DNA from: a bacterium
GTDB taxonomy: Bacteria > Chloroflexota > Dormibacteria > Aeolococcales > Bog-877
DNA: 64,000 nt
Direction: 5' to 3'
Assembly (NCBI GenBank): GCA_021816695.1
Contig: JAKAXE010000003.1
Span: 1,573-65,572, forward strand
The translations under genes were made by a program, and so were the position numbers. The notes beneath the pieces were generated by a model, which saw nothing but the letters and a program-made list of their open reading frames with translations, was not told the origin of the DNA and ran no database searches. Positions 15,482 to 53,387 of the stretch are shown piece by piece. Positions within the stretch are counted from its first letter, which is position 1, and each line of letters starts with the position of its first letter.

Positions 15482-16702
15482 TCAGGGCCGGCCCGCCTCC
15501 GGAAGAACGAGCCTCACGACCCGCCTCGGGCCCACCCTAAGGATGGTTCCCGAGGAGAACTCCACGGGCTCCGGAGCTGCGGGGAGCCGGTGGTCTCCCA
15601 GCCTCACCGCGCCCTGGCTGAGAAGCCGCAACCCCGCGCTGCGAGAACTCGCCATCCCCGCCCGGACCAGCAGATCCCGGGGGTCCACGGGGCCAGGTGG
15701 TACCACCACCTCGACGATCTCCGAGGGCAGCTCCTTGAAACGGAAGCGCCGGAGAAACTCCTGGGCCGCCTGCTCAGCGGCCTCCTCACCGTGAAACTCG
15801 GCCACCACCCGTCTCGCCATCAGCTCCTTCAGGTCGCGGGGAAGGACCGTACCGGTGCCCAGCTTCCGGGCCAACTCCCGCGACTCGACCAGCGGAGTTG
15901 AGGTCGCCAGCTCCAGGTAGGGAACGATCTGGGCGTCGGGTATCGACATCAGGCGACCAAACTGGTCGTCCGCGGGGTCGGCCACACCCACGGCGTTGCC
16001 CAGTGACTTGCTCATCTTGCGCTGGCCGTCAATGCCCACCAGGAGGGGCACGGTGACCACATCCTGGGGGGCCATCCCGTAGGCCAGCTGCACCTCCCGC
16101 CCCCGCAGGAGGTTGAAGAGCTGGTCGGTCCCTCCCAACTCCACGTCGGCCGCCACCGCCACCGAGTCGTACCCCTGGAGCAGCGGGTAAAGCAACTCGT
16201 GGAGTCCGATCGGCCGCTCCTCTGCCATCCGCTGGCCGAAGTCAGATCGCTGCAGGAGCTGGGCCACAGTAGCCGTACCTGCCAGGCGCAGGACGTCTGC
16301 GAGACCGAACTGGCCGAACCACTCGCTCTGCCAGCGCACCTCCGCTCCCACCTGGTCCACCACCGTGAAGAGCTGCTCCAGGTAGGTCCTGGCGTTGGCC
16401 GCCACCTCCTCCGCAGTGAGCTGGGGTCGGGTGGCGGAGCGCCCGGTGGGGTCGCCGATGCGGGCGGTGACGTCGCCGATGATCAGGACCGGGGTGTGCC
16501 CCTGAGCCTGCCAGCGCCTCAAGAGGCGCATGGGTACGGTGTGGCCCAGGTGGATGTCCGGGGCACTGGGGTCGATTCCAAACTTTACCCTGAGGTGGTC
16601 GCCCCGCTCCACCCTTTCCCGGAGGTGGGCGGCGTCCACGCAGTCGACCACCCCCTGGAGAAGGACATCCCACTTGGCAGCGGAGGGATCGGTGGCGTCC
16701 AC
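15482..16702 (-). CDS. tyrS: Tyrosine--tRNA ligase
   Basis: KFGIDPSAPDIHLGH, IGDPTGR, YPLLQGYD, GGTDQ.FN, KMSKS, C-terminal S4 domain; GTG start 7 nt after TAACGT. Confidence 0.95.
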   Translation of the reverse strand: MDATDPSAAKWDVLLQGVVDCVDAAHLRERVERGDHLRVKFGIDPSAPDIHLGHTVPMRLLRRWQAQGHTPVLIIGDVTARIGDPTGRSATRPQLTAEEVAANARTYLEQLFTVVDQVGAEVRWQSEWFGQFGLADVLRLAGTATVAQLLQRSDFGQRMAEERPIGLHELLYPLLQGYDSVAVAADVELGGTDQLFNLLRGREVQLAYGMAPQDVVTVPLLVGIDGQRKMSKSLGNAVGVADPADDQFGRLMSIPDAQIVPYLELATSTPLVESRELARKLGTGTVLPRDLKELMARRVVAEFHGEEAAEQAAQEFLRRFRFKELPSEIVEVVVPPGPVDPRDLLVRAGMASSRSAGLRLLSQGAVRLGDHRLPAAPEPVEFSSGTILRVGPRRVVRLVLPEAGRP

Positions 16703-16846
16703 GCAGGGAACGTTACCGAACCGGCCACCGGTCCAGCCGCCACCTCTCAGGACGCCACCAGCTTGGTGATCCCCGGGCGCCGGTAAACTCGCGCCCAGAC
16801 GGCGCGAGACGGCCCGGCCCCGGGCGGTTCTGGGTGGAGGTCTGGT

Positions 16847-18232
16847 GTGCAGATAGAGGTCCTGGAGACGCCTGAACTGGGCGATCGCAGCTACGTGGTC
16901 GCGGACGGCCGGGAGGCGGCGGTCATCGACCCCCAGCGCGACCTGCACCGGTTCATGGATCTCATCGAGCGTCGGGGGTGGCGGGTCCGGTTGGTCCTGG
17001 AGACTCACCTGCACAACGACTACGTCACGGGTGGGCTGGAACTCTCGCGGCGGACCGGGGCAACCTATGTCGTGGCCGGAGGGGAAGAGGCAACCTTCGA
17101 CTGCTGCCCAGCACGCGAGCAGGACACGTGGGAGCTGGGGCGGGCCCGGATCAAGGTCCTGGCCAGCCCGGGGCACACCCCTGGGCACTGCGCCTACCTC
17201 TTGCGAGGACCGGAGTCCGAGGATCTCGCGGTGTTCTCCGGCGGATCGATGCTCTTCGGTACGGTGGGCCGGACTGACCTGGTGGCACCGGACCGTACCG
17301 ATGAGCTGAGCCGGCTCCAGCACCGCTCGGTGCGGCGCCTGGCCTTCGAGCTCCCAGAGTCCGTGGAGGTCCACCCCACCCACGGCTTCGGAAGCTTCTG
17401 TGCCTCATCACCCGGCAGCGGTGGCCAGCGCAGCTGGGTCGGGGAGGAGCGGCTAACCAACCTAGCCTGTCGCATCGAGGACGAGGAGGAGTTCGTCCGC
17501 ACGCTCCGGTCCGGCCTCGGCGCCTATCCGAGCTACTACGCCCACATGGGGCTCCTCAACCGAGCTGGCCCGGCCGCCTTGGACCTCACCCCGCCGCTCC
17601 GGGTGACCCCGCAGGACGTTCCCTCCCGGATCACCGCCGGCGAATGGGTCGTGGATCTTCGGCCTCGCCGCGAATACGCCCGGGCGCACCTCCCCGGCAC
17701 CGTGGGTGTGGAACACGACCCCAGCTACTTCACGACCTATCTCGGGTGGGTGATCCCCTGGGGCACCCCCGTGACCCTGGCGGCGAGCTCCGAGTCGGAG
17801 CTGGCCGGCGCCCAGCGGGACCTCGCCCGCATTGGGATAGACCGACCCGCGGCCACGGTCCTCCTGCCGGCAGAGCTTGGCGACGCCGGACGCGGATTCC
17901 AGGTGGTCGGGTGGGAGGAGCTGGCAGCCGAACTGCGTTCCCCCCGGCCGCCGGCCATCCTGGACGTCCGCTCCGAGGAGGAATGGCGGGCCGGACACCT
18001 GCCCGGAGCCACCTGGATCCCCCTGGGAGACCTGGGCCGGCGCCTCGGCGACCTCCCCCAGGTACCCACCTGGGTGCATTGTCAAGCCGGCTACCGCGCC
18101 AGCGTGGCCGCCAGCCTGCTCGATCGAGCGGGCGTACCGGTGGTGCTGGTCGACGATGACTTCGGGCGGGCGGTCGCTGCAGGGCTCGCCGTGGTAGCGG
18201 GGCTCGCCCCAGATGGGAGCTCCACCGACTGA
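16847..18232 (+). CDS. MBL-fold metallohydrolase fused to two rhodanese domains (persulfide dioxygenase/CstB-like)
   Basis: ETHLHNDY, PGHTPGH, GRTDL, P.HG.GS.C, DLR/DVR...EW..GHLPGA, catalytic loop CQAGYR. Confidence 0.85.
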   Translation: MQIEVLETPELGDRSYVVADGREAAVIDPQRDLHRFMDLIERRGWRVRLVLETHLHNDYVTGGLELSRRTGATYVVAGGEEATFDCCPAREQDTWELGRARIKVLASPGHTPGHCAYLLRGPESEDLAVFSGGSMLFGTVGRTDLVAPDRTDELSRLQHRSVRRLAFELPESVEVHPTHGFGSFCASSPGSGGQRSWVGEERLTNLACRIEDEEEFVRTLRSGLGAYPSYYAHMGLLNRAGPAALDLTPPLRVTPQDVPSRITAGEWVVDLRPRREYARAHLPGTVGVEHDPSYFTTYLGWVIPWGTPVTLAASSESELAGAQRDLARIGIDRPAATVLLPAELGDAGRGFQVVGWEELAAELRSPRPPAILDVRSEEEWRAGHLPGATWIPLGDLGRRLGDLPQVPTWVHCQAGYRASVAASLLDRAGVPVVLVDDDFGRAVAAGLAVVAGLAPDGSSTD

Positions 18233-18256
18233 CGAGCTCCTCCGGTCGGCTGCCCC

Positions 18257-18284
18257 TTGACAGCGACGTACAACGTGCTATGTT
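18257..18284 (+). promoter_or_regulatory. Sigma70-type promoter driving a stand-alone transcript
   Basis: TTGACA (18257-62), 16-nt spacer, extended -10 TGcTATGTT (18276-84). Confidence 0.7.
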
Positions 18285-18290
18285 GGATTC

Positions 18291-18529
18291 AGGTATCCGG
18301 GTTCAGACGGAGGTGTCACGTAGTGCGTACCGTCTGGAGCATGCTGAGGCACACTAGGGCGGAGTGAGCGGCCCCCCGGGGCCATCCCGGCGGAAGGTTT
18401 CCGCTGCTTCGCGTTGGGCCCCGGCAGAGGGCGACTCGCCACGTATTTCGTTCCGGCTTATCCGCCGGACGCGGTGCCTACAGCACCGGTGACTTATGGG
18501 AGCGGGCCAAAGTGCCCGCTCCTCTTTTT
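18291..18529 (+). ncRNA. Unassigned structured RNA (~240 nt), possibly also encoding a 14-aa peptide
   Basis: Bounded by promoter and intrinsic terminator; long nested complementary segments; no large sense ORF. Confidence 0.6.
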
Positions 18530-19059
18530 GCCCTCAGCGCGTCGGCGAGGTAGTAGCGCAGGGAGGCAGGGTCCCTCACTCCTATCCGGGGTCCGGCCTC
18601 AACGGGTTGCCCCGGCATACCGGCCTCCAGCCACAGATCTGTGCTCCGGGAGCAGAGGTCCCGGCGATTGTCCGCCAGGGTAACCCCGAGGGCGCGGCAG
18701 AGGAGCGCCGGGCCGCCCACCACCTCCCCGGAGGGCCGGCGGCCGGCCCGGAGCAGGACCGCCTCGGCCTCCCCGACGGAGCCGGTCACCACGTTGAGGC
18801 AGTGATGCATCCCATAGATGAAATAGACGTAGGCGTGACCGGCCGGTCCGTACATGGGCAGGTTACGGGGGGTGGGGCCGCGGCGGGCATGCGAGGCCGG
18901 GTCCGATTCCCCAAGGTAGGCCTCCACCTCCAAGAGTTCCAGCCTTATTGGGCCCGTCGGATCCCGCCGGACCAGCCAGCACCCCACCAGCTCCTGGGCC
19001 ACCTCGGGGCTGGGGCGGGCGAAGAACTTTCGACCCAGGCGCGATCCCAGCGGGCTCAC
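18478..19059 (-). CDS. mpg: DNA-3-methyladenine glycosylase (MPG/AAG family)
   Basis: FF.R...VA..LVG, EVEAY.G..DPASH, G.AYVYFIYGMH.CLNVV, AVLLRA, GP..LCRALG, RIGV; GTG overlaps pheT stop. Confidence 0.9.
   Translation of the reverse strand: MSPLGSRLGRKFFARPSPEVAQELVGCWLVRRDPTGPIRLELLEVEAYLGESDPASHARRGPTPRNLPMYGPAGHAYVYFIYGMHHCLNVVTGSVGEAEAVLLRAGRRPSGEVVGGPALLCRALGVTLADNRRDLCSRSTDLWLEAGMPGQPVEAGPRIGVRDPASLRYYLADALRAKRGAGTLARSHKSPVL
18499..18529 (+). terminator. Intrinsic terminator
   Basis: GGAGCGGGC-CAAAGT-GCCCGCTCC hairpin followed by TCTTTTT. Confidence 0.8.
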
Positions 19060-21443
19060 CGGGCCTTCGCGCCGACCTCCAGCTCCAGCACGCGCAGCAC
19101 GGCCTGCCGGGCCGCGTCCCCTTCGGCGGTCGTCAGCGTCCGCTCCGGGTGACGAAGGCGAAGCCGGAGTGTCCAGCCCTTGAGCCCCGGCCCGAGCTGG
19201 TCCCCTAAATACTCGTCGATCGGCGTTACCTGCTCCAACCAGGGCAGCCCGAGCGCGGAGACCGCCCGCAGCGCCGGCCCCAGAAGGGCCCGGCTGGGGA
19301 CGGCCACCGAGAGGTCGAGCACGAGCGCCGGCGTGCGGGGGAGGGGCGCGGCGTGGCCCGGGCGGCCTCCGGGCTTGAGCCAGCCGTCCAGGCGCAGCTC
19401 GGCCACCTCCAAGCGCCCCCGGACATCGAAGGCATCCGCCACCGGCTGAGCCACCTCGCCCACGATCCCTCGGAGCTCCGCACCGGCCCAGACCTCGGCT
19501 GCCCGAGCGCGGTGCAGTGCCGGCCATGTGACCGGCCGGAATTCCACCGCCCCCCCGCCACCGACGTTGGAGAGGGAGGCGATGAGGGCCATGAGGTGGC
19601 GCAGCCGGCTCACCCCGTCCTCCGTGGAATCGTCCGCCAGGTCCAGGAGCGCCACCATCCAGGGCTCCTCCGGCCGCTCCTGGCCCCTCCCCCAGAAGAC
19701 GGCTCCCTGCTCGAAGAGTCGGACCCTGTCCTGGCCGCGCGCCTGGTTGTGATGGGCGCTCTGGAGCAGCCCCTGCAGCAGGCCTTGGCGCAGGCTCCCC
19801 AACTGGGCGGAGAGGGGATTGGCCAGCTCCAGGTGGGCGAGGTCTCCGATGAGGCGTGGGGCCAGCCCCTCCCTCTCGCCAGACACCAGGCTAAGGCTCA
19901 GAGCTTCACTGAAACCGGCCGCCCGACAGGTTGTGGAGGCCAGGTGGGCGACCGGCTCCGCCAGCGCCTCTAAGGGTGGCGCCTGGCGGATCGGGGGGAG
20001 TGTCCCAGGCACTTCCTGGTAACCGATGATCCGCCCGACCTCCTCAGCCAGGTCCACGGCGGTGGTGACGTCGGTGCGGTAGGGGGATGGGGTGACGAGC
20101 ATCTCAGCTCCATCCTCCTGCACCTCAAACTGGAGGCGACGAAGGGGGCTGGCAACCGCCTCCGAGCTGAGCTCCATACCCAGGATTGAGGAGATCCGCC
20201 CGGGGTCGCAGCGGATGGCAGAGGCTGGGGTTAGGGGCACGCCTCCCGCCGCCCCGGGGCCTAACGTAGCCCCCAGGTGCCGGACGGCCAGGTGGATGAA
20301 GCGATCCGCACCAGCTCTCGCCAGATGTGGCGACAGCTGGCGCTCGAATCGGCTGGAGGCCTCGGTCCTGAGACGGAGCCGCCGGGAGGTGGAGCGGAGC
20401 CTCGCCCAGTTGAAGTTGGCTGCTTCCAGAAGCACCTGACTGGTGTCCGCGCCCACCGCGGACGCCTCCCCCCCAATCAGGCCGGCCACCGCCTGGGGAG
20501 CATCGCCCACGGTGATCACCAGGGTCTCGGGGTCGAGGTCCCGCCTGACTCCGTCCAGGCAGGGGATCGACTCACCCTGCCGGCCTCGCCGCACCCCAAC
20601 CTCAAGCTCCTTCTCAGACGCTGGCAGCCGGCTCAGGTCGAAGGTGTGCAGGGGTTGCCCGACCTCGAACATGACGTAGTTGGCGACATCCACGATCCCA
20701 CCCAGCGATCGCTGCCCGATGGCTGCCAGGCGCCGTCGGACGAAGGCCGGCGCTGGAGTGTTGCCGAGCCCCGTCAGGACCTCAGCCAGGTAGACGGGGC
20801 AATCGGCGGACGAGTCGACGGTCACCCGGACCATGGGGCCTGAGCCTGAGCGCGCCGGCCGGCTCACATCTGGGTTCCGCAGGGCGCGCGAGAGCAGAGC
20901 CGACAGCTCCCGCGCCACGCCCCAGTGGGAGAGGCAGTCGGCGCGGTTGCTGAGAACCTCCAGCTCGTACAGGTGGTCTGCGGGATACACCCGGTCCAGC
21001 GGCATCCCGGCCTCGGCGTCGTCCGGGCTGAGTATCAGCACTCCGTCGTGCTCCGAGCCCAGCCCCAGCTCATCCGGAGCGCAGAGCATTCCCTCGCTCC
21101 AGATCCCCCGGAGCCGCTTGCGGCCGATCTCCACCCCGATCGGAAGGCGGGTGCCGGGACGGGCCCAAGGGACGAGCGCCCCCACGAAGAGGTTGTCGGC
21201 GCCGCAGATCACCTCCCGAGGCTCCTGCCCAGGGATCGCGACATGGGCTAGGAAGAGGTGATCGCTGCCCTCCACGCGGCGCAGCCCGAACACTTCGCCC
21301 ACCACCACCTGGTCCAGCCCCACCCCGTAGGCAGTGACCTTCTCTACTTCGGTGCCGCTCAGAGTGAGAAGCTCCGCGGCCCGTGCCGGCTCGACGCCCT
21401 CCAGGTCGACCATCTCCGACAGCCACTCGTGACTCACCCGCAC
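19056..21443 (-). CDS. pheT: Phenylalanine--tRNA ligase beta subunit
   Basis: ICGA.N, SEGMLC...ELG, NRADCLS..GVARE, VDVANYV..E.GQPLHTFD, RFER, DLAEEV.R..GY, RTLT. Confidence 0.95.
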   Translation of the reverse strand: MRVSHEWLSEMVDLEGVEPARAAELLTLSGTEVEKVTAYGVGLDQVVVGEVFGLRRVEGSDHLFLAHVAIPGQEPREVICGADNLFVGALVPWARPGTRLPIGVEIGRKRLRGIWSEGMLCAPDELGLGSEHDGVLILSPDDAEAGMPLDRVYPADHLYELEVLSNRADCLSHWGVARELSALLSRALRNPDVSRPARSGSGPMVRVTVDSSADCPVYLAEVLTGLGNTPAPAFVRRRLAAIGQRSLGGIVDVANYVMFEVGQPLHTFDLSRLPASEKELEVGVRRGRQGESIPCLDGVRRDLDPETLVITVGDAPQAVAGLIGGEASAVGADTSQVLLEAANFNWARLRSTSRRLRLRTEASSRFERQLSPHLARAGADRFIHLAVRHLGATLGPGAAGGVPLTPASAIRCDPGRISSILGMELSSEAVASPLRRLQFEVQEDGAEMLVTPSPYRTDVTTAVDLAEEVGRIIGYQEVPGTLPPIRQAPPLEALAEPVAHLASTTCRAAGFSEALSLSLVSGEREGLAPRLIGDLAHLELANPLSAQLGSLRQGLLQGLLQSAHHNQARGQDRVRLFEQGAVFWGRGQERPEEPWMVALLDLADDSTEDGVSRLRHLMALIASLSNVGGGGAVEFRPVTWPALHRARAAEVWAGAELRGIVGEVAQPVADAFDVRGRLEVAELRLDGWLKPGGRPGHAAPLPRTPALVLDLSVAVPSRALLGPALRAVSALGLPWLEQVTPIDEYLGDQLGPGLKGWTLRLRLRHPERTLTTAEGDAARQAVLRVLELEVGAKAR

Positions 21444-25464: not shown

Positions 25465-25541
25465 GGGCGCATAGCTCAGGTGGTTAGAGCGCTACCCTGA
25501 CACGGTAGAGGCCCCAGGTTCGACTCCTGGTGCGCCCACCA
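25465..25541 (+). tRNA. tRNA-Val(GAC)
   Basis: Acceptor stem GGGCGCA/TGCGCCC, anticodon stem CTACC/GGTAG with loop CT-GAC-AC, GGTTCGACTCC T-arm, encoded CCA; TATAAT at 25445-50. Confidence 0.97.
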
Positions 25542-53217: not shown

Positions 53218-53387
53218 GGCCCAGGGTAACCCGCCGGCCTGGTTCCGATCCCTACACCACCAGGTGGGTGCGCCGCACGCGGCTTTCCACTTCCCCTCAA
53301 GGAGGCTTGTGGGCCACCAGCTCTGTTGGCGCTCCCGGGAACTTCATCACTAGGGTCGGGCGCTGGCGTTCGGCGGGGCCCCGGGCC
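53218..53387 (-). ncRNA. ssrS: 6S RNA
   Basis: ~170-nt rod with paired ends (GCCCGGGG..CCCGCCG / CGGCGGG..CCCTGGGC); internal GGGAGCGCC / GGCGCACCCACCTG motif as in Bacillota 6S; TGcTACCTT -10 just upstream; aspS-ssrS synteny. Confidence 0.8.

Follow-up and report, generated by a model that had tools for sequence, protein, structure and literature searches.

A candidate dual-function small RNA of Candidatus Dormibacteria that joins a conserved 14-codon open reading frame to a covarying RNA domain

Dual-function small RNAs pair an RNA with a peptide that it encodes: Spot 42 of Escherichia coli is described as encoding the 15-amino-acid SpfP (PMC8916003), and further dual-function RNAs are AzuCR with AzuC, VcdRP with VcdP, and SgrS with SgrT. 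Here, we describe a locus at positions 18257–18529 of a 64,000-nucleotide (nt) stretch of Dormibacteria DNA (contig JAKAXE010000003.1; the whole stretch is called the window below), for which an original prediction, made from the letters alone, had proposed an unassigned structured noncoding RNA. All three features of that observation were upheld, as we found a promoter, an intrinsic terminator, and a well-folded stretch of ~240 nt between convergent genes. We also found what the earlier reading had overlooked: a Shine–Dalgarno (SD) sequence, a GTG start codon, and a small open reading frame (sORF) of 14 codons.

Our best explanation, to which we give a probability of roughly 55%, is that the locus is a new small RNA of the dual-function type, independently transcribed and joining a gene of 14–16 codons to a conserved structured RNA domain. 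With a conserved 14-amino-acid peptide ahead of a folded RNA tail, the unit is probably a two-in-one regulator made of peptide and RNA. Dual-function RNAs such as Spot 42/SpfP would be its closest relatives in kind, by analogy of architecture and with no homology. Like those RNAs, the locus is predicted to give a short transcript from its own promoter and intrinsic terminator, the signals being conserved in relatives, and like Spot 42 it holds a very small ORF (14–16 codons here, 15 in Spot 42) beside a conserved structured RNA.

The small ORF and its start-site hairpin

The coding part of the unit and the hairpin around its start site lie as follows:

18309–18313, + strand: SD sequence GGAGG, 9 nt ahead of the start codon.
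18323–18367, + strand: sORF of 14 codons plus stop, from the GTG start at 18323 to the TGA stop at 18365–18367, with the predicted peptide MRTVWSMLRHTRAE.
18304–18336, + strand: hairpin P1, CAGACGG (18304–18310) pairing with CCGTCTG (18330–18336); it encloses the SD sequence and the start codon, and its 3′ arm is sORF codons 3–5.

Using DNA similarity, we found the stretch in 21 of the 24 other genomes of the window's family, the window's own genome holding a single copy; among the 16 genomes of the sister family, the same approach gave a 20-nt chance match in one only. The alignment of the homologues showed the promoter, the terminator, the hairpins, and the frame of GGAGG, spacer, start codon, and 14 codons to be all conserved, and a script located GGAGG in 20 of the 20 homologues found by DNA similarity. 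A search of one genome per prokaryote species with a pattern of SD sequence and back-translated peptide gave 36 loci, 19 of which repeated loci already collected. The 37 distinct sequences of the window's family thus analyzed comprise 20 from plain DNA similarity and 17 in which the search pattern fixed part of the sequence, so that in the latter the conservation at the fixed residues holds by construction.

Among these 37 sequences, the start codon is ATG in 24, GTG in 12, and TTG in 1, and the frame is closed by TGA, TAA, or TAG, which is codon 15 in 35 sequences and codon 16 in the other 2. Arg2 is encoded by five kinds of codons (CGT, CGA, CGG, CGC, and AGA), Val4 by GTC, GTT, and GTG, Leu8 by four kinds (CTG, CTT, TTG, and TTA), and Arg12 by three (AGG, CGG, and CGA). 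Residues 6 and 7 are freely variable and nearly all other residues are conserved, the consensus across one order of the class being M-R-T-V-[W/Y/F]-x-x-L-R-H-[T/G]-R-A-E. For the sister family, we used 30 loci of mpg, a gene adjoining the RNA in the window, that were collected independently of the RNA; an nhmmer profile of the RNA from the window's family matched 22 of the 30 at E < 0.01. The ORF found there reads M-R-T-V-[W/Y/F]-[Q/E]-x-[L/F/Y]-R-[H/R/A]-[G/T/S]-R-A-E-x-stop, with a few longer tails and with swaps of W to Y or F at residue 5.

We then compared the rates of nonsynonymous and synonymous change (pN/pS) between reading frames in 35 distinct ORFs from the two less biased sets. The ratio was 0.42 in frame vs. 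1.22 and 1.50 in the other two frames, with a small bias from the frame having been picked by a script using a loose peptide expression, and the third codon positions were the most variable. These comparisons show, as a signature in the sequences, that the SD sequence and the 14-codon ORF are under purifying selection across one order of Candidatus Dormibacteria. What distinguishes a dual-function RNA, a translated small ORF, is found here in the form of that evolutionary signature, and the original view of the RNA as purely noncoding does not survive it.

The start site itself appears to be built into a hairpin. In the 36 sequences of the window's family used for the structural counts, P1 is 90.9% paired and invariant, and a hairpin around the SD sequence and start codon was seen in every clade, with its noncoding arm tracking the changes of the coding arm. 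Where codon 3 changes from ACC to ACG, the 5′ arm changes from ACGG to ACCG, and where the codons GTC TGG (V W) become GTG TAC (V Y), the 5′ arm changes from CAGAC to GTACAC; in one genus, the register of the hairpin is shifted. Minimum-free-energy (MFE) folds of 80 distinct homologous 5′ regions paired at least three of the five SD bases in 71 and at least two bases of the start codon in 65. The compensatory changes show that P1, which is predicted to bury part of the SD sequence and usually the start codon, is maintained.

Transcription signals and covarying hairpins

The transcription signals and the elements downstream of P1 are as follows:

18257–18284, + strand: sigma-70-type promoter with −35 box TTGACA (18257–18262), a 16-nt spacer, TG at 18276–18277 (extended −10), and −10 box TATGTT (18279–18284).
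18358–18440, + strand: P2 domain, whose base helix GGCGGAGT/ACTCGCC (18358–18365 with 18434–18440) takes in the last sORF codons and the stop.
Within P2, + strand: inner helices GCCC/GGGC and CGGGGCC/GGCCCCG, the latter 18377–18383 with 18417–18423; the inner helix is 92.1% paired, with three pairs changed on both sides.
18390–18395 with 18399–18404, + strand: variable P2 tip hairpin GCGGAA/TTCCGC, present in the window sequence.
18452–18469, + strand: P3 hairpin TCCGGC-TTATCC-GCCGGA (18452–18457 with 18464–18469), 99.5% paired, with changes on both sides in three of six pairs.
18472–18488, + strand: P4 hairpin CGGTGC-CTACA-GCACCG, 95.2% paired, with changes on both sides in three of six pairs; it contains the stop codon of mpg (− strand).
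18498–18529, + strand: intrinsic terminator with a 10-bp GC-rich stem (18498–18523), a 6-nt loop, and a T tract (CTTTTT) that ends at 18529.

The promoter and terminator claimed for the RNA were thus both found, and all the helices listed in the original prediction could be located in the window sequence. The promoter scored 10 of 12, and a scan of 17500–19500 gave one such site vs. 0.1 expected from shuffled sequences; among the 80 homologous 5′ regions, a promoter-like site scoring at least 9 of 12 lies at the matching place in 48, and the distance from the −10 end to the SD sequence is 23–25 nt in 57. The terminator scan found one site vs. 0.5 expected from shuffles. Three metatranscriptome runs of the same study, with a word share of 0.00, gave no contig that could be placed on 18100–18700, an outcome with no weight for or against expression. 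From these signals, the 5′ end of the RNA is predicted at about 18291 and its length at about 240 nt in the window (roughly 18291–18529) and about 270–330 nt in the sister family. The fold of 18290–18530 has a predicted energy of −123.7 kcal/mol, in comparison with a mean of −103.5 (SD of the energies 5.0) for shuffled sequences (z −4.0), none of 200 shuffles being as stable.

To see which pairs are kept between genomes, we counted 47 proposed pairs in the 36 sequences of the window's family. Of the cells, 89.2% were paired vs. 37–46% with slid partners; 12 pairs showed changes on both sides vs. 7.2 in shuffles, with 4 of 500 shuffles as high, and the covariation score was 0.151 vs. 0.113 in shuffles, with 0 of 500 as high, shuffle-based controls of this kind being inflated by the kinship among the sequences. 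The covarying elements were the inner P2 helix, P3, P4, and the terminator. For the sister family, the count covered 36 sequences and 32 pairs, namely the P2 closing helix, an extra hairpin, P3, P4, and the terminator: 92.4% were paired vs. 31–51% with slid partners, and 14 pairs had changed on both sides vs. 4.8 in shuffles, none of 500 being as high. The terminator covaries in both families, one of its pairs being AU in 19 and GC in 13 sequences of the window's family and another AU in 16 and GC in 16 of the sister family. The loop of P3 is nearly invariant in the window's family, and a matching hairpin is present in the sister family.

The P2 of the sister family is larger, and its closing helix, 95.8% paired, begins right after the stop codon. 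Inside this enlarged P2, the motifs GCGCC[A/G]CCGT, G[A/G]TCCGGCAGG, GGTTGGA, and AAGAGCGC are kept across genera and have no Rfam match; the conserved motifs suggest a structured module that is absent from the window's family. The comparisons show, as far as alignments reveal structure, a P2 domain that begins at or right after the stop codon and covariation in P2, two further hairpins, and the terminator.

Two other pairings were considered and set aside. The long-range helix joining 18342–18352 and 18474–18485, which would make the molecule a rod, is present in the single-sequence MFE fold and has 76.2% of its cells paired in the window's family; its covariation score of 0.087 equals that of shuffles (0.087, with 242 of 500 as high), and it competes with the covarying P4. 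A pairing of the sORF end with the 3′ arm of the terminator, suggested by RNAalifold, was by our reading of the alignment (uncounted) not kept in other genera. The structure backed by covariation is a string of local hairpins, and the picture of a rod with a bubble, like 6S-2 or Ms1, offered by the original prediction finds no support.

Comparison with Rfam and collection of homologues to look for covariation had both been suggested as checks in the original prediction. No family reached its gathering score at the locus, the only match at gathering scores in the whole window being a tRNA at 25465–25538; a permissive scan of 18100–18700 gave chance-level matches on the terminator only, the best at 23.3 bits vs. 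a cut-off of 80, and 12 homologous loci gave no match at E ≤ 0.01. As homologues were found, with helices covarying in two families, and as the RNA is absent from Rfam 15, we consider it a new RNA family.

We tried several identities for the RNA and rejected them. A 6S RNA (RF00013) found no match in 18100–18700 even at E ≤ 10 and none at gathering score in the window. A tmRNA (RF00023) found no match at the locus by model or by ARAGORN, and a substitute for tmRNA is not called for, a canonical tmRNA scoring above cut-off elsewhere in 35 of 41 relatives. T-box leaders (RF00230) had no Rfam match at E ≤ 10 in the window region, nor at E ≤ 0.01 in the 12 homologous loci. A type I toxin mRNA shares the occluded start only: the peptide has 14 residues with three to four Arg, a His, and a Glu, whereas toxins of this type are hydrophobic membrane peptides, usually of >19 amino acids, with an antisense RNA as partner. 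Finally, an ORF of 42 amino acids at 18364–18492 is not conserved, as a 1-nt indel lies within it between the window and its nearest relative.

Elsewhere in the window, the region 53246–53358 (− strand) matches 6S RNA (RF00013) at 39.8 bits and E 1.7e-6 over model positions 37–150 of 187. The canonical 6S candidate placed at 53.2–53.4 kb by the original prediction is therefore there as a match, which falls below the gathering score of 46.4 bits; it is probably the real 6S RNA of the genome, diverged from the Rfam seed. The genome of the window, a metagenome-assembled genome (MAG) of 142 contigs and 89% completeness, gave no full tmRNA by ARAGORN or the Rfam model and a tRNA-like match of 43.8 bits only, and the missing gene is probably an assembly gap.

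Distribution and gene neighbourhood

We searched 374 genomes of the class with a relaxed pattern of SD sequence and sORF and found the element in 129. Every one of these belongs to one of two families within a single order, and the control with a reversed pattern gave 0; the genomes sampled are incomplete MAGs, so absence here means not found in those searched, and they include two unpublished ones, one matching and one not, neither of which is the sole basis of any statement made here. Leaving out the window's own genome, the tallies for the two families were 38 of 43 and 90 of 117. The three other families of the class gave 0 of 43, 0 of 11, and 0 of 159 (0 of 213 in total). In a third family, 30 loci anchored on mpg, one of these also from an unpublished genome, yielded nothing better than E 1.3 with nhmmer and contained no sORF that matches. 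A sample of 401 genomes of the phylum, in the sense given to it by the sampling tool, contained 16 matches, all in the same two families, with 0 of 379 genomes in about 80 other families and one match for the control. By record title, the 36 loci from the search across prokaryote species were 24 from Candidatus Dormiibacterota or Dormibacteria, 7 from a "bacterium," and 5 others. These five records, which carry the SD–sORF element of the RNA and the mpg context, are titled Micrarchaeaceae or Micrarchaeia archaeon, Acidiferrales, Verrucomicrobiia, and Nanopelagicaceae, and one of them shows no difference, across the stretch extracted, from a locus in a genome of the window's own family; the five titles look like mislabels.

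In the window, the RNA is flanked by two genes:

Ending at 18232, + strand: MBL-fold/rhodanese gene, the upstream flank of the RNA.
18478–19080 (upper end approximate, the start codon not being placed), − strand: mpg, methylpurine-DNA glycosylase (PF02245, E 4.6e-48), with its stop at 18478–18480.

The MBL/rhodanese gene on the + strand and mpg on the − strand are the two convergent genes between which the RNA had been placed, correctly. As the mpg stop lies inside the RNA, the final ~52 nt of the RNA are antisense to the mpg ORF, and the antisense overlap of the two 3′ ends was accordingly seen as described. The last ~20 residues of mpg (18478–18540, − strand) are outside the Pfam domain and read across P4 and the terminator to a chance stop, and in tblastn comparisons with most relatives outside the window's genus the mpg alignments stop short of this tail. 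With the tail lying beyond the domain and unaligned in most relatives, the overlap looks like a by-product of tail-to-tail packing. Along the − strand of 15482–21443, the order is pheT, mpg, the RNA and the MBL/rhodanese gene (both on the + strand), and then a gene for a class-I tRNA synthetase of Tyr/Trp type; in the window's genus, the MBL/rhodanese gene is inserted between tyrS and the RNA.

Across relatives, mpg lies convergent and right downstream of the RNA in 54 of the 56 loci where the RNA was found, one of the remaining two being cut by a contig end and the other having no mpg within reach, and convergent downstream in 20 of the 30 loci found via the sORF pattern. Judged by a rough terminator call, 42 of 63 distinct loci have an mpg ORF that reaches into the RNA's 3′ end, the overlap ranging from about −158 to +94 nt, and there is no overlap in the other 21. 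On the far side, tyrS is divergent upstream in 18 of 104 loci examined, a count that includes duplicates and many loci too short to reach tyrS; the unit is thus often placed in the gap between mpg and tyrS.

Other placements occur as well. In one genus of the sister family, the unit shares a strand with tyrS and lies immediately upstream of it, some 5.5 kb away from mpg, so the claim that there is no downstream sense gene holds for the window and most relatives and fails in this genus. In one such tyrS-linked locus that we read, TTGACA follows the terminator of the RNA. The same genus has a second complete unit elsewhere, with all parts, the peptides differing slightly (V or I at residue 4); it lies between the genes for an FAD-oxidoreductase and an inositol-monophosphatase. 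One genome has the RNA behind mpg, with both on one strand, and the paralogous copies away from mpg retain the whole hairpin array. These copies and placements away from mpg argue that the unit is self-contained and movable, with the mpg–tyrS gap as its usual home.

Readings of the locus and comparison with known systems

In the mechanism that we propose for a dual-function RNA, P1 would hold the ORF translationally shut until opened, the candidate openers being heat, a helicase or protein, and ribosome loading during transcription. A ribosome at the stop codon would have to melt the base of P2, and since a terminating ribosome must open this helix, translation and the fold of the RNA domain would be coupled. 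The basic, aromatic-containing peptide, as the most conserved product, is the likely effector, either free or bound to its own RNA, and the hairpin array would give stability and possibly a second activity at the RNA level. More speculatively, and with a low chance for either version, the peptide and its own RNA could be a single device. As a nascent-chain switch, it would place R-A close to the peptidyl-transferase centre and the aromatic residue by the constriction of the tunnel, with P2 held open and the RNA fold switched; it would then be an arrest-peptide sensor whose output is a trans-acting RNA and not a downstream gene. In the other version, the peptide would be released and then bind the conserved hairpins in the transcript that encodes it, and the product would be a self-encoded ribonucleopeptide. 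To our knowledge, neither arrangement has been described so far, no literature search aimed at the arrangement as such having been made.

Several observations count against the dual-function reading. The base helix of P2 is weak in the window's family, being 69.8% paired with no covariation; the local 5′ hairpins of the 80 distinct 5′ regions are only modestly stabler than shuffled sequences (mean z −1.36); and G+C-rich genomes inflate the potential for pairing. The wider sampling was largely done with a pattern that fixes several residues, and with 14 residues the product is about as small as functional bacterial peptides are known to be. The label "dual function" is itself an analogy and not a demonstrated property of this RNA.

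The evidence can also be read in other ways. The unit might be a cis-acting leader in which a nascent arrest or attenuation peptide pauses the ribosome, which holds P2 open and switches the downstream fold, the output being either what the RNA itself does or transcription past the terminator into the neighbouring gene, antisense into mpg, or sense into tyrS in the one genus where the unit stands directly upstream of it on the same strand. The near-total conservation of residues other than 6 and 7 is what one expects of a chain read inside the ribosome, and the aromatic residue 9 positions and the R-A 2 and 1 positions before the last residue recall arrest motifs of the RAG/P and RAP/P kinds. 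P2 has its start at the stop codon, and a pairing open to codons 7–10 and the 5′ arm of P4, with 76.2% of its cells paired, would make a translation-sensitive alternative fold. That alternative helix, however, shows no covariation, the consensus folds hold no conserved antiterminator alternative, and the single-amino-acid runs of classic attenuators are missing. Also lacking is the Pro or Gly that, as a defining residue, should follow R-A-P/G. One family ends the frame immediately behind R-A-E, the other adds a single variable residue first, and a few sequences carry on for as many as six residues more, so that R-A stands at no constant distance from the stop. The terminator is followed by a convergent gene in 54 of 56 loci of one set and 20 of 30 of the other. 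We regard a cis-acting leader as unlikely. The peptide could instead be the sole product of a plain tiny mRNA, its hairpins being a stabilizing 3′ untranslated region and a terminator shared with mpg, with no role at the RNA level. It is the most conserved part of the unit, the two families have P2 domains of very different size and sequence, the mpg ORF, by the rough measure above, overlaps the RNA's 3′ end in 42 of 63 distinct loci, and the sister-family terminator has an A-rich tract upstream besides its T tract, like bidirectional terminators. A passive 3′ region would, on the other hand, explain neither the covariation of P3 and P4 nor the near invariance of the P3 loop within the family; the conserved motifs inside the sister-family P2 are more constraint than is usual for such a region, and the paralogues away from mpg retain the full hairpin array. 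These features make a peptide-only transcript improbable to us.

The same neighbourhood would fit an antisense or insulator element of the pheS–pheT–mpg and tyrS region, with the ORF secondary, working through the 3′-end overlap, through processing of RNase III type, or by blocking mpg read-through into tyrS. The RNA and mpg are widely found tail to tail, their 3′ ends overlap in the window, and tyrS is divergent on the other side in 18 of 104 loci. The overlap, though, varies from about −158 to +94 nt, and 21 of 63 loci lack it; the unit can stand apart from mpg, as it does in one genus, or be present as a paralogue at another site, and the purifying selection on the peptide is left unexplained. 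We hold this role to be very unlikely. Least credible of all is a purely noncoding RNA, whether of a new class or a second RNA-polymerase-binding RNA of 6S/Ms1 type. The RNA's own promoter and terminator, its strong fold, the lack of an Rfam match, and the position of the 6S candidate of the genome elsewhere agree with it, yet it conflicts with the coding signature of the ORF, the lack of any 6S match at E ≤ 10 in 18100–18700, and the row of local hairpins in place of a rod with a bubble, the rod-forming helix showing no covariation.

The unit joins an ORF that is among the shortest conserved in bacteria to a covarying RNA, and it forms a sharply defined family (one copy per genome, the genus with a second unit aside; 129 of 374 class genomes; one order only). 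For Dormibacteria, a soil lineage that is uncultured and globally distributed, we found no described regulatory RNA or micropeptide, and a full-text literature search with Dormibacterota and "small RNA" gave no paper on small RNAs of the lineage, supplements lying outside that search. The unit may serve as a test case for recognizing very small ORFs within "noncoding" RNAs, and possibly for the gating of translation by a start-site hairpin coupled to RNA folding and for 14-residue peptides as effectors. It also carries a caution, as both tool-free reading and Rfam-style thinking had classed the RNA as noncoding.

Among the known systems, attenuators such as trpL, pheL, and pheM come close in layout: like them, the unit has an ORF of ~14 codons with hairpins and an intrinsic terminator behind it, the transcript measuring about 150–250 nt, and genes for aminoacyl-tRNA synthetases are its neighbours. 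In Sinorhizobium, peTrpL and rnTrpL form a pair of a 14-amino-acid leader peptide and an RNA. We rejected attenuation through regulatory codons, as the peptide has one aromatic residue (position 5), a variable residue 7, and no tandem runs, and likewise a sense gene after the terminator, mpg lying there in convergent orientation (54 of 56 loci and 20 of 30 loci in the two sets) and tyrS co-directional in one genus only. No alternative pairing with the terminator arms is conserved in the consensus folds, the arms being G+C-rich, near-palindromic, and open to many pairings.

The end of the peptide invites comparison with arrest peptides of SecM/RAPP type. Other members of this group have well over 100 residues, vs. 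14 codons here. [quoted passage not shown] Like these peptides, ours has R-A two and one residues before the would-be P-site residue at the end of the ORF and a conserved aromatic residue about 9–10 residues upstream; unlike them, its distance from R-A to the stop is variable. Membership in the RAP(P/G)/SecM group was rejected, R-A-E being followed by a stop or a variable residue and not by Pro or Gly, and so was a SecM-type context, the neighbours being the MBL/rhodanese gene, mpg, pheT, and tyrS with no Sec/YidC gene downstream.

With 6S and Ms1 RNAs, the unit shares a promoter of housekeeping type that looks suited to an abundant RNA, a structured RNA of ~200 nt, and the lack of an adjacent sense gene; it differs in having no model match, no rod and bubble, and an ORF that looks translated, and a separate sub-threshold 6S candidate lies in the window. 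Peptides with arginine-rich motifs bind RNA hairpins, as do the N proteins of phages lambda and phi21 with boxB and HIV Rev and Tat. Our peptide resembles them in being short and basic, with several Arg, one aromatic residue, and R-A-E, and in being encoded beside conserved small hairpins; it has 14 residues, is not part of a larger protein, and has no GNRA-like boxB loop near it. The dual-function RNAs remain the nearest analogues. They have no sequence or Rfam relation to the unit and come from outside this uncultured lineage, and what sets the unit apart from them is a peptide far more conserved than the RNA domain, an SD sequence and start codon locked in a covarying hairpin, and an RNA domain that starts at the stop codon.

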